Positions 49,704 to 50,740 of a stretch of 64,000 bases of DNA are shown here, in pieces. Position 1 is the stretch's first letter. Each line of letters starts with the position of its first letter. Source of the DNA: a virus; the IMG/VR virus record IMGVR_UViG_3300012347_000106, positions 4,476 through 68,475 of that record, one strand, 5' to 3'. Under the pieces are notes generated by a model. The model saw only the letters and a program-made list of their open reading frames with translations, did not search any database and was not told the DNA's origin. Made by a program: the position numbers and the translations under genes.

Positions 49704-49884
49704 AGTCAGATTTCAAATCATGCCAGCACAAGACCCCAACTGGAAGTGCTACTTGTTTGGCAACACACCTAGCGGACACGGCATGATTTACATCCCGGCG
49801 GAGGGCCAAGTGCCCAACTGGTTTGTGCGCTGGATGATGAAGGTGTGCCTTGGTTGCACATGGGTTAAGAAGGAAAACACATGA
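49696..49884 (+). CDS. hypothetical small protein
   Basis: 62 aa. Confidence 0.4.
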   Translation: MTEVRFQIMPAQDPNWKCYLFGNTPSGHGMIYIPAEGQVPNWFVRWMMKVCLGCTWVKKENT

Positions 49885-50048
49885 AAGACGAAGCATTGAA
49901 GCTGGCGCTGGAAGCGTTGGAAGACAGGACAAGTCTTATGAAGTGGCAAGCAGCCCGTGATGCAGTTAAAAAAGCCTTGGCACAGCCAGAGCATAAGCCG
50001 GTGGCCTACGAAAGCAGAGTCGCTCATATGTTTGGAGATAAGCGATGA
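49881..50048 (+). CDS. small protein paralogous to the N-terminus of the RF-1-domain protein
   Basis: The first roughly 40 nt (atgaaagacgaagcattgaagctggcgctggaagcgttggaag) are nearly identical to the start of the next gene ([14 protein letters not shown] vs [15 protein letters not shown]). Exact end is +/-1 nt. Confidence 0.35.
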   Translation: [55 protein letters not shown]

Positions 50049-50740
50049 CCAAAGACGAAGCATTGAAGCTGGCGCTGGAGGCGTTGGAAGCACACGCAGA
50101 CATCGGCATTAAGTCTGACAAAGCCATCACCGCCATCAAGCAAGCCCTTGCAGCACCTGTGCAGCCTGTGGCGTTTCTTGCAAACGGGACGCGCTTCAAA
50201 ATCAGCTATGACAGCCGCCAAAGCGGAGGCCAGATTCACGGCATTCCTCCAGAACTTGGCGGGCAATGGGTTGCGCTCGTTGCAGCCGAGGATGATTGCC
50301 ACCTGAAGCTCGCCACCCCACCCGCAGCACCTGTGCAGGAGCCGACGAAGCTGAAGCCCGAAGATGTGATTGTCGAAACTTACTCAACCCAAAAAGGCGG
50401 GTTCGTTCTCAAGCCCGACAACGGCGTGCGCTTGATCCACAAGCCAACTGGCATCGTCATGCAGTGCGCCAGTGAGCGCAGCCAGCACCGCAACCGTGAC
50501 CAAGCGTGGCGAGACTTGGAGCGTTACCTCTATGGGGCCAGACCTCAACCCGCAGCACAGCGGCAATGTGTTGGGCTGACTGAGCGAGAGATTGAGCTAC
50601 TTGACGGGATGATTGCGGTGCAACTTGACCATGCAGCGCGGTGCGACGGTATTGCAAACCGCACGATGGCCGAGAAGCAAAAAGGCTGGGACATGGAGCG
50701 CGTGGCGCTACTGCAAAAATTAAAGAAGGAAAAATCATGA
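50045..50740 (+). CDS. peptide-chain-release-factor-like (RF-1 domain, ArfB/class I RF GGQ-domain family) protein
   Basis: [35 protein letters not shown] matches the conserved RF-1 domain core. At the canonical GGQ position the sequence reads KGGF, although two GGQ tripeptides occur about 55 residues upstream. Confidence 0.55.
   Translation: [231 protein letters not shown]

Follow-up and report, generated by a model that had tools for sequence, protein, structure and literature searches.

The window analysed here is a 64,000-nucleotide stretch of an IMG/VR virus record (IMGVR_UViG_3300012347_000106, positions 4,476 to 68,475). A Pfam/profile scan of its genes identified a large terminase, PolA, an SNF2 helicase, a DUF927 protein and a PD-(D/E)XK nuclease, in agreement with the phage origin proposed in a first-pass annotation made from the sequence alone. 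The two forward-strand open reading frames (ORFs) that the annotation had singled out were both recovered. The upstream ORF (49881..50048) encodes a 55-residue protein, ORF55, in which a helical leader is followed by a linker (QPEHKPVAY) and a short C-terminal tail (HMFGDKR); it overlaps by ATGA the second ORF (50045..50740), which encodes a 231-residue protein. A Shine-Dalgarno-like motif lies 6-7 nt before each start (AAGGA at 49870-49874 and GGAG at 50034-50037, respectively). The 231-residue ORF belongs to the early or accessory genes of a tailed phage, and an identical protein (P0001) is encoded on a 68,475-bp JGI contig.

Immediately downstream, and outside the 231-residue protein, is a glutaredoxin/NrdH-like gene on the same strand (50737..50970, Pfam Glutaredoxin, E=1.6e-13). 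It shares 72% nucleotide identity with the glutaredoxin gene of a related contig from the Logan collection (L089) and is the syntenic anchor of a variable slot. Searches of PHROG and Pfam gave no match for the other neighbours, and the window contains no tRNA genes. Across nine related loci the surroundings consist of small orphan genes in varying arrays; no neighbour is conserved, and gene neighbourhood was rejected as a functional clue. Linkage to tRNA genes, an idea taken from phage ZZ1 and from PMC5966550, was also rejected: a tRNA lies nearby only in ZZ1 and in one jumbo contig. Individual contigs carry other accessory genes near a related domain gene, an Acb2/Tad1-like gene on L003 and a NAMPT gene with a CTP-transferase/NUDIX (NadR-like) gene on L009. 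A search of IMG/VR returned only two close loci. A scan of 185,579 species genomes gave mostly lower-identity matches (36-56% for the longer ones) on bacterial chromosomes and contigs of metagenome-assembled genomes, which are presumably ordinary release factors; no match resembling the window's GGF group was seen in that collection.

Comparison of the 231-residue protein with 120 BLASTP homologues, from which the module boundaries were drawn, shows a four-module mosaic (A-B-C-D) whose flanking modules are exchangeable cassettes joined at conserved Pro/Ala/Gln linkers. Module A (residues 1-38, 50045..50158) is a helical-hairpin leader found in 48 of the 120 homologues and also in ORF55; in the AlphaFold2 (AF2) model it forms helices 3-16 and 25-36 with a pLDDT of ~82. 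Module B (residues 39-90, 50159..50314) is conserved, is modelled with a pLDDT of only 44-61, and is ~90% identical in more than 50 proteins, most of which lack an RF-1 domain. A conserved 10-residue linker (linker 1, 50315..50344), which recurs at module borders across the family, leads into module C (residues 102-167, 50348..50545), and a conserved 14-residue linker (linker 2, 50543..50584), also recurrent across the family, leads out of it. Module D (residues 177-231, 50573..50737) is a helical hairpin modelled with high confidence (helices 180-202 and 206-230, pLDDT 93-96) and found at 63-90% identity (mostly 75-90%) in ~39 proteins, again mostly without RF-1. Neither Pfam nor PHROG gives a match to module A, B or D; the modules recur in other metagenomic proteins, mostly on phage-like contigs, joined by the same type of linker.

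Module C is a homologue of domain 3, the peptidyl-hydrolase domain, of RF1 and RF2. Pfam assigns the 231-residue protein a single RF-1 stretch (PF00472, E=9.8e-12, 45.3 bits with the cut-off at 35), in which residues 102-167 cover profile positions 6-74 of 116, and phmmer finds solved RF1 and RF2 chains at E of about 2e-11, with ~35-45% identity over 65-75 residues. The AF2 model is confident in this region (pLDDT 84-95 in the 10-residue blocks spanning 101-160, and 62 in block 161-170) and displays strands 108-117, 123-132 and 138-141 followed by helix 147-164, the three-stranded sheet and long helix alpha-7 of domain 3. Foldseek superposes the model on an RF2 peptidyl-transferase-centre fragment (6c4h_v) with a TM-score of 0.82 and an rmsd of 2.1 Å, and its top 43 PDB matches are all RF1, RF2, mtRF1, mtRF1a, PrfH or C12orf65; the RF1 chain of the RF1-PrmC complex (2b3t_B) is among the sequence and the fold matches. 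The first-pass annotation had described an RF-1/ArfB core. The RF-1 half of that description stands, and the ArfB half does not: E. coli ArfB gave only E=0.065 in BLASTP, no chain named ArfB or YaeJ appears among the PDB matches at E<=10, and the protein has no basic C-terminal tail.

The catalytic loop is altered at its tip. Where release factors carry GGQ(H), the protein reads QKGGF, with the GGF tripeptide at residues 118-120 (50396..50404); the loop is one residue shorter before the glycines and one residue shorter at the glutamine position. Pairwise phmmer and profile-profile alignments agree on this register, and neither places a glutamine at the GGQ position; in the latter (hhalign, probability 99.9%, E=1.2e-33) the glutamine corresponds to a one-residue deletion. 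The non-canonical GGQ position noted in the first-pass annotation is upheld, and it extends to the close homologues, 31 of 31 of which carry GG[F/L/C] and none GGQ. The annotation had also pointed to two GGQ tripeptides further upstream, either of which, if it fell at the catalytic loop, would make the protein an ordinary hydrolase. Both tripeptides are real (residues 61-63 and 72-74, 50225-50233 and 50258-50266, 57 and 46 residues before GGF), but neither can be the catalytic loop, because they sit in module B, a separate module that aligns with the GGQ and the glutamine-less release-factor profiles at hhalign probabilities of only 0.5-0.7% (E about 0.1), and because they are not conserved: the second reads GGR in nearly all module B homologues, and one subfamily lacks both. 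By eye, a 13-residue stretch of module B resembles LRIDTYRASGAGGQ; the idea of a cryptic second GGQ domain was rejected, since this likeness fails in hhalign and Pfam reports a single RF-1 stretch.

The protein is no singular oddity: it falls within a large clade of glutamine-less domains whose members occur in cultured phages and on phage-like metagenomic contigs. An exhaustive search returned 2333 matches at E<=1e-3, and GGQ is absent from 99 of the 154 best aligned segments. Column statistics were taken over 93 representatives of these 99 segments, clustered at 50% identity and retaining a full-length loop. The loop tip among them is F in 70%, W in 18% and M or L in 10%, and the GG pair is kept in only 61%. 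The clade retains the core motif of the beta-sheet and helix alpha-7, H..PTG....RSQH.NR..A...L, with H132, P134, T135, G136, R145, S146, H148, N150 and A154 kept at 95% or more, whereas the N, T, S and A of the HVNKTDSA segment that follows GGQ, invariant in the GGQ set, are variable. Cultured-phage members without GGQ include LPPA15, VCM, ZZ1 and Vibrio 249E41-1; many members are only 64-85 residues long, and the BFVD collection of viral protein structures contains short phage proteins of the same fold. In hmmscan the 231-residue protein matches phrog_20323 (E=1.2e-14), as well as phrog_19918 and phrog_35727, and it fits the PHROG 20323 clade in its shortened loop, hydrophobic tip and retained H..PTG/RSQH.NR core.

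A missing catalytic residue and a match restricted to part of the RF-1 profile could also describe a decaying fragment of a captured host prfA or prfB, a pseudogene or an annotation artefact. Purifying selection on module C is strong (dN/dS 0.04-0.2, dS being close to saturation), which effectively refutes this explanation; the intact ORF with its Shine-Dalgarno motif and translational coupling, the confident fold and the occurrence of this loop change in roughly a hundred diverged representatives speak against it as well, and we regard it as wholly improbable.

The start of the 231-residue gene is shared with ORF55. As previously noted, the two begin almost identically: a 40-nt segment at 49884..49923 recurs at 50051..50090 on the same strand with 39 of 40 positions identical, identity falls sharply beyond it, and shuffled sequences yield an expectation of 0 such matches by chance. 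At the protein level, ORF55 is 58% identical to the N-terminus of the 231-residue protein over 36 residues. The interpretation of this repeat as a local partial duplication is not borne out. A 56-residue protein on contig L089 (P0248) equals ORF55 apart from one extra start residue and again precedes a mosaic gene, a different one with the same leader, in the gene order of the window; another protein (P0253) ends in the same HMFGDKR tail. The repeat is better read as a leader common to a mosaic gene family, and ORF55 is a conserved gene with no character of a local remnant.

Comparison with known systems places module C close to RF1 and RF2 and apart from the dedicated rescue factors. It shares with RF1/RF2 domain 3 (PF00472) the sequence homology, the fold of beta-sheet and helix alpha-7, and the H..PTG and RSQH.NR motifs, but it lacks the GGQ glutamine, has a loop two residues shorter and does not conserve HVNKTDSA. 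Full-length RF1 and RF2 have ~360 residues as opposed to 231, and their domains 1, 2 and 4, with the PxT or SPF motifs, are missing here, so the protein has no means of stop-codon recognition; unrelated phage modules surround the domain in their place. The nearest counterparts are short phage proteins annotated as 'RF-1 domain peptide chain release factor' (PHROG 20323), exemplified by YP_006488787 of Acinetobacter phage ZZ1 and, in Pseudomonas phages, by CUR44383 ('PrfA') of VCM and XPA09719 of LPPA15. They belong to the same clade, lack GGQ, have W or M as the tip residue of the loop and also lie among small phage accessory genes, but are mostly standalone proteins of 64-160 residues, unlike the four-module mosaic with its family-specific linkers. 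ArfB (YaeJ), ICT1 and C12orf65 resemble the protein in carrying the hydrolase domain without codon-recognition domains; the basic C-terminal helix of ArfB and ICT1 enters the mRNA channel. PMC3950681 and PMC6514570 describe ArfB as keeping GGQ, having an alpha-i insertion in many members and needing a basic C-terminal helix for ribosome binding; the 231-residue protein has neither GGQ nor an ArfB-type tail, its module D having net charge 0 and a pI of 6.8. Similarity to C12orf65 is insignificant (E=0.13-0.27 in the PDB search), and PrfH, the RtcB-associated release factor H, shows no specific similarity (E=0.023 and 0.66), with no RtcB domain among the scanned window genes or the called neighbours of related loci.

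Our best inference is that module C imitates domain 3 without catalysis and docks at the ribosomal peptidyl-transferase centre or on some other partner that domain 3 has. The more specific version, in which this non-catalytic mimic occupies the 50S A site and the peptidyl-transferase centre, is one we put forward tentatively, as plausible though short of probable. The glycines of GGQ adopt torsion angles reachable by glycine only, any mutation of them abolishes release, and the glutamine side chain has been assigned a packing role against U2506, A2451 and A2452 (PMC5799190). On these grounds module C most likely no longer hydrolyses peptidyl-tRNA, and its hydrophobic tip might instead pack into the A2451/A2452/U2506 pocket that normally houses the methylated glutamine. 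During infection it could, by docking where domain 3 docks, compete with the host's RF1 and RF2, with rescue factors or with ligands of the A site, while the variable modules might supply dimerisation or other functions.

Ribosome binding by module C is a prediction. The module is basic (net +3, pI 9.3), as is canonical domain 3, but the clade is on average less so (+1.0 versus +2.4 per 60 residues). According to PMC3950681, ribosome binding by ArfB depends on residues of the C-terminal tail, where single substitutions significantly lower it. A free GGQ domain alone would presumably bind the ribosome weakly; the absence of a basic tail and the small size of many clade members count against the mimic. 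The segment after GGQ that contacts the peptidyl-transferase centre is exactly the part that has lost conservation, which could mean that the interface with the ribosome was given up and not reshaped, and neither a conserved neighbour gene nor tRNA linkage points to translation. Among the functions suggested in the first-pass annotation, ribosome rescue is the least likely because it needs hydrolysis, and a mimic or dominant-negative role is possible. A bolder extension, which we consider doubtful, is that the whole clade consists of phage ligands of the peptidyl-transferase centre, in which a rigid beta-hairpin would place an aromatic residue within the A-site cleft (A2451/A2452/U2506), much as an aminoacyl side chain or an antibiotic of the peptidyl-transferase centre sits there. 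Carrying such a ligand in 'polyvalent' accessory proteins assembled by cassette shuffling, a phage might block or retune termination in the host, the rescue of ribosomes or defence toxins that act at the A site.

The same conservation pattern can be read without the ribosome. A clade that keeps the domain scaffold and lets the ribosome-contacting HVNKTDSA segment drift may instead serve as a decoy or an inhibitor; its target would be a protein of the host or of a defence system that recognises domain 3, such as the GGQ methyltransferase PrmC/HemK or an RF-targeting toxin or defence effector, with the hydrophobic tip acting as a dead-end ligand in the glutamine-binding pocket. Standalone members of 64-85 residues would suit a small protein-protein inhibitor, the PrmC-bound RF1 chain is among the structural matches and the PrmC interface is therefore formed by domain 3, and anti-defence-type accessory genes accompany the domain on contigs L003 and L009. 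No co-occurring gene suggests a specific target, however, and the benefit to a phage of lowered RF methylation is speculative; we judge the decoy unlikely. Rather less likely is that the domain now serves as a stable structural or adaptor cassette, one among many in mosaic phage accessory proteins, and has lost every link to translation. The glutamine-less domain does occur in many module combinations, with a piece matching Mu Gam-like end-protection/host nuclease inhibitor proteins, with DUF551 and with various C-terminal modules, and related loci have no conserved neighbours. Against an adaptor, the H..PTG and RSQH.NR signatures are 95-100% conserved despite divergence to about 40% identity, and the tip that was once catalytic has a fixed hydrophobic residue; together they suggest that a specific interface has been kept and speak against a generic scaffold.

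A codon-independent peptidyl-tRNA hydrolase still active through its GGF loop, in an ArfB-like rescue role and possibly with an altered nucleophile or substrate preference, seems to us more improbable again. Both glycines are retained in the 231-residue protein and its close relatives, catalysis reportedly proceeds mainly through the backbone at the glutamine position, and several glutamine substitutions are said to be active in vitro. Phages could gain from rescuing ribosomes stalled by phage-defence nucleases. The packing role assigned to the glutamine side chain (PMC5799190) also fits continued activity. In this protein, however, the loop has lost a residue on either side of the glycines, the glutamine position being missing instead of occupied by another residue. 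In addition, 39% of the clade representatives lack the GG that is indispensable for catalysis, the invariant post-GGQ segment is lost, and the protein lacks both the ArfB-type basic tail and the codon-recognition domain that could position it on a stalled ribosome.

Loss of the glutamine with retention of the domain for a non-hydrolytic role may have precedents in organelles. Plant PrfB3 is an inactive organellar derivative of the bacterial hydrolase domain. A survey of bacterial-type hydrolase domains (PMC6514570) lists the mitoribosomal protein MRPS35 as the sole catalytically inactive derivative and leaves phages unmentioned. Both differ from the phage clade in being eukaryotic and organellar, in their structural or RNA-stability roles and probably in having no specific sequence kinship with it, the losses presumably being independent. 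GGQ has been described as a universal feature of release factors and of the surveillance proteins akin to them, and in the searchable non-subscription literature we found neither a description of phage RF-domain proteins without GGQ nor a functional study of any short phage member of the clade.

What the window brings to light is a large, strongly constrained clade, mostly from phages and phage-like contigs, in which the catalytic tip has been systematically replaced by a hydrophobic residue. If the mimic does bind the peptidyl-transferase centre, the clade would represent a new class of viral translation modulators and a natural protein scaffold for targeting that site; if it binds another partner of domain 3, it would reveal a host-phage interface of an unknown kind. 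The locus is also a clean example of protein-module cassette exchange at short conserved linkers: relative to contig L089, modules have been exchanged at these junctions, and linker 2 survives as a 36-nt island of 94% identity in surroundings that are otherwise unrelated.

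The 231-residue product of the mosaic gene (50045..50740, + strand, by ORF call) matches the Pfam RF-1 profile (PF00472) with E=9.8e-12; its 45.3 bits clear the gathering score of 35, and profile positions 6-74 of 116 align with residues 102-167. Solved RF1 and RF2 chains match the same protein at E about 2e-11. The window is a tailed-phage genome that carries genes for a large terminase, a family A DNA polymerase, a SNF2 helicase and a DUF927 primase-like protein, together with a PD-(D/E)XK nuclease, an HNH endonuclease, a MazG-like protein and glutaredoxin. The first-pass annotation of a phage-encoded RF-1-domain protein is thus borne out by the profile score and these genes. 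A protein identical to it was found on a 68,475-bp JGI metagenome contig, and no close relative is present among 50,697 GenBank phage records.

The register of the catalytic loop was established by two kinds of alignment. Alignments to RF1 and RF2 made with phmmer put QKGGF opposite SG(H/A)GGQ(Y/H) with a two-residue gap. A profile-profile comparison, in which 91 glutamine-less and 51 GGQ-bearing segments were each condensed into one profile, gives a probability of 99.9% (E=1.2e-33), with one deletion ahead of GG and one exactly at Q, so that F120 pairs with the His of GGQH. The catalytic position lacks glutamine in every alignment made, and the altered catalytic loop is confirmed as real. The two GGQ tripeptides noticed upstream are present at residues 61-63 and 72-74, 57 and 46 residues ahead of the loop, in a different module that has no similarity to RF-domain profiles (probability below 1%). 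In almost every homologue the second reads GGR, and one subfamily has neither. The possibility raised with the original claim, that one of them forms the catalytic loop at normal spacing, did not materialize: they belong to a separate non-RF module and are not conserved. The ArfB part of the earlier label had to be given up, as BLASTP against E. coli ArfB gives E=0.065, and a PDB search at E<=10 returned no chain named ArfB or YaeJ. The core is RF1/RF2-like rather than ArfB-like. The protein contains an RF-1 superfamily member by sequence and fold that fails the family's defining catalytic motif; its identity as RF1, RF2, ArfB or PrfH was rejected.

The protein is a mosaic of four modules. Among its 120 best database relatives by BLASTP, most cover just 25-40% of its length, with identities up to 93%. 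Module A (residues 1-38) is a helical leader shared by 48 of the 120 relatives and is modeled by AlphaFold2 as a helical hairpin (pLDDT about 82; 58-sequence alignment, mean pLDDT 77 for the protein). Module B (residues 39-90) recurs at about 90% identity in more than 50 proteins, the majority lacking RF-1, and is modeled with low confidence (pLDDT 44-61). A 10-residue linker leads to module C (residues ~102-167), a confident RF-like domain (pLDDT 84-95) in which a tight hairpin joining strands 108-117 and 123-132 takes the place of the former GGQ loop. A second linker, PQPAAQRQ(W/C)VGLTE, connects to module D (residues 177-231), a very confident helical hairpin (pLDDT 93-96) that recurs in about 39 proteins at 63-90% identity (mostly 75-90%); most of these proteins have no RF-1. 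The top Foldseek matches in the PDB are release factors only, the best being 6c4h_v, the PTC-region fragment of RF2 (TM 0.82, rmsd 2.1 A).

Other fusions were observed among the homologues. P0076 joins an RF module without glutamine to a 44-residue stretch that hits PHROGs annotated as 'Mu Gam-like end protection' and 'host nuclease inhibitor', and P0198 joins such a module to DUF551. P0232 (682 residues), also with a glutamine-less RF module, has a weak, sub-threshold match to ribosome modulation factor (RMF), and P0096 (391 residues), with no RF-1 match, fuses module B and linkers to a glutaredoxin domain.

The window gene, unusual for its mosaic setting, adds another member to a widespread clade. 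An exhaustive phmmer search of module C against 1.84 billion representatives returned 2333 proteins at E<=1e-3; of 154 aligned segments, taken from the best 150 together with the close family, GGQ is missing from 99 and present in 55. Loop statistics were computed on 93 glutamine-less segments with a full-length loop, clustered at 50% identity; the most distant are about 40% identical to the query. The loop tip is F in 70%, W in 18% and M or L in 10%. GG is kept in just 61%, the others having SG, GS, SA or TG. The HVNKTDSA segment is variable, in contrast to the GGQ set, where its N, T, S and A never vary, while H132, P134, T135, G136, R145, S146, H148, N150, A154 and L158 are at least 95% conserved. 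The cultured-phage members found, none with GGQ, include Pseudomonas phages LPPA15 ('RF1', loop NSGSAW) and VCM ('PrfA', loop SSGGM), Acinetobacter phage ZZ1 (76 residues, loop KHSNW) and Vibrio phage 249E41-1 (loop LGGW), and BFVD holds more short phage proteins of the same fold. PHROGs already groups these proteins as phrog_20323, 'RF-1 domain peptide chain release factor', and the 231-residue protein belongs to this phage short RF-1-domain group, which carries no annotation beyond the domain name. Purifying selection on module C is strong, with dN/dS of 0.04-0.20 in ten pairs (dS 0.14 to above 2); the module is therefore a functional domain rather than a decaying fragment, and a pseudogene is hardly credible. 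A survey of release-factor hydrolase domains omits phages and gives MRPS35 as the only inactive bacterial-type derivative (PMC6514570), and we found no description of phage RF domains without glutamine, and no study of the clade, in the full-text literature, subscription journals aside. The clade, which is not unique to the window, represents a genuine and strongly constrained exception, apparently unstudied, to a motif that is considered universal.

What the module does we infer from this pattern of loss and retention. The GGQ glycines adopt backbone angles reachable by glycine alone, and release is abolished by any mutation of them; the side chain of the methylated glutamine packs on U2506, A2451 and A2452 and helps to position water (PMC5799190). 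With the glutamine deleted, the glycines not required and the post-GGQ segment gone, hydrolysis has presumably been lost clade-wide, and a hydrolase that is still active seems improbable. That the scaffold motifs are invariant and the tip is fixed as hydrophobic speaks for the retention of a specific interface. In the model that we tentatively prefer, the module mimics RF domain 3 at the 50S A site and PTC but does not catalyse hydrolysis. The glutamine-less module would occupy both sites in competition with RF1/RF2, rescue factors or other A-site ligands, its aromatic tip taking the place of methyl-glutamine in the hydrophobic pocket. Like canonical domain 3, module C is basic (net +3, pI 9.3), which favors the mimic, although the clade overall is less basic than canonical domain 3. 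The model is also weakened by the short length of many members (just 64-85 residues), by the drift of the very segment that normally touches the PTC, and by the absence of an anchoring tail; in ArfB, ribosome binding was significantly lowered by single substitutions at conserved C-terminal tail residues (PMC3950681). The module might instead act as a decoy that engages PrmC/HemK, a defence effector or another protein partner of domain 3, which we regard as unlikely, or it might be a structural cassette put to new use and unconnected with translation, which is less likely still.

ORF55 (49881..50048, + strand, 55 residues by ORF call) lies just upstream of the mosaic gene, its stop overlapping the start of the latter as ATGA, and a Shine-Dalgarno-like motif stands 6-7 nt ahead of both. 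A 40-nt repeat (49884-49923 and 50051-50090, + strand) is identical at 39 positions, with none expected by chance; DNA identity collapses past it, and the N-termini share 58% identity across 36 residues. The near-identical start reported earlier therefore stands, but its reading as a local partial duplication does not. P0248, on Logan contig L089, is ORF55 with one extra Thr after the start Met, and gene order in L089 is the same: a 61-residue gene, ORF56 (ORF55 in the window), a mosaic gene and glutaredoxin. ORF55 as a local remnant was rejected on these grounds, and we take the duplicated N-terminus to be a leader common to the whole family. The C-terminal HMFGDKR tail of ORF55 also occurs in P0253.

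The mosaic slot of L089 holds a 192-residue protein with the same leader and other internal and C-terminal modules, plus an extra 95-residue gene. Between window 49870-50970 and L089 569-1842, nucleotide identity is 94% across ORF55 and the next 40-nt leader, then breaks. It reappears in two islands, 31 nt at AITAIKQA (97%) and 36 nt at the PPAAQRQWVGLT linker (94%), the surrounding sequence being otherwise unrelated, and stands at 72% in the glutaredoxin gene. This pattern suggests recombination at leader and linker sites. P0002 (contig L008), the closest module C relative, matches the window protein at 96% identity across C and the two linkers, but its N- and C-terminal modules are entirely unlike those of the window protein. 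We conclude that modules are swapped at junctions marked by the leader and linker sequences, which are short and highly conserved.

The genomic surroundings offer no clue to function: no consistent tRNA or other partner lies near clade genes, and neighbours in related loci are variable arrays of small orphan genes. In ZZ1 (190-1761 of the locus), the 76-residue glutamine-less gene lies within about 650 nt of a tRNA cluster (Ser, Pro, Trp), and the record also annotates tRNA-Thr at the locus edge; such linkage was not seen in most other loci. Two phages with close homologues have small-gene arrays containing known or likely anti-defence genes. One (locus L003) encodes an Acb2/Tad1-hairpin protein at 918-1157; the other (L009) carries two NAD-salvage genes, a CTP-transferase/NUDIX gene that we read as NadR-like and NAMPT, at 2240-3298 and 6786-7158.

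Within the window, a start-region motif, AAGAAGGAAAA(C/T)A(C/T)CATGAA, precedes three consecutive small genes (49867-49893, 50723-50749 and 51741-51767), whose stops and starts overlap as ATGA, an arrangement suggestive of translational coupling in an operon of small early genes. A 38-nt direct repeat beginning TTTTAAGGTTAAAAGAAATGAA (44838-44875 and 47548-47585, 82% identical) overlaps gene starts, has weaker copies at 53445 and 56193, and may be a shared regulatory or translation-initiation element. An upstream run on the + strand (46567-49047) encodes an HNH-AP2 endonuclease (46567-47052), a MazG/PRA-PH-like pyrophosphohydrolase (47062-47553), an SPFH/Band 7 protein (47766-48569) and a protein with the nucleotide-modification-associated Nmad5 domain (48580-49047), which hints at a DNA or nucleotide modification module. 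The early region, also on the + strand, encodes an AAA ATPase (37923-39008) and a DUF2201 protein with a putative metallopeptidase and a VWA-like domain (41078-42268).
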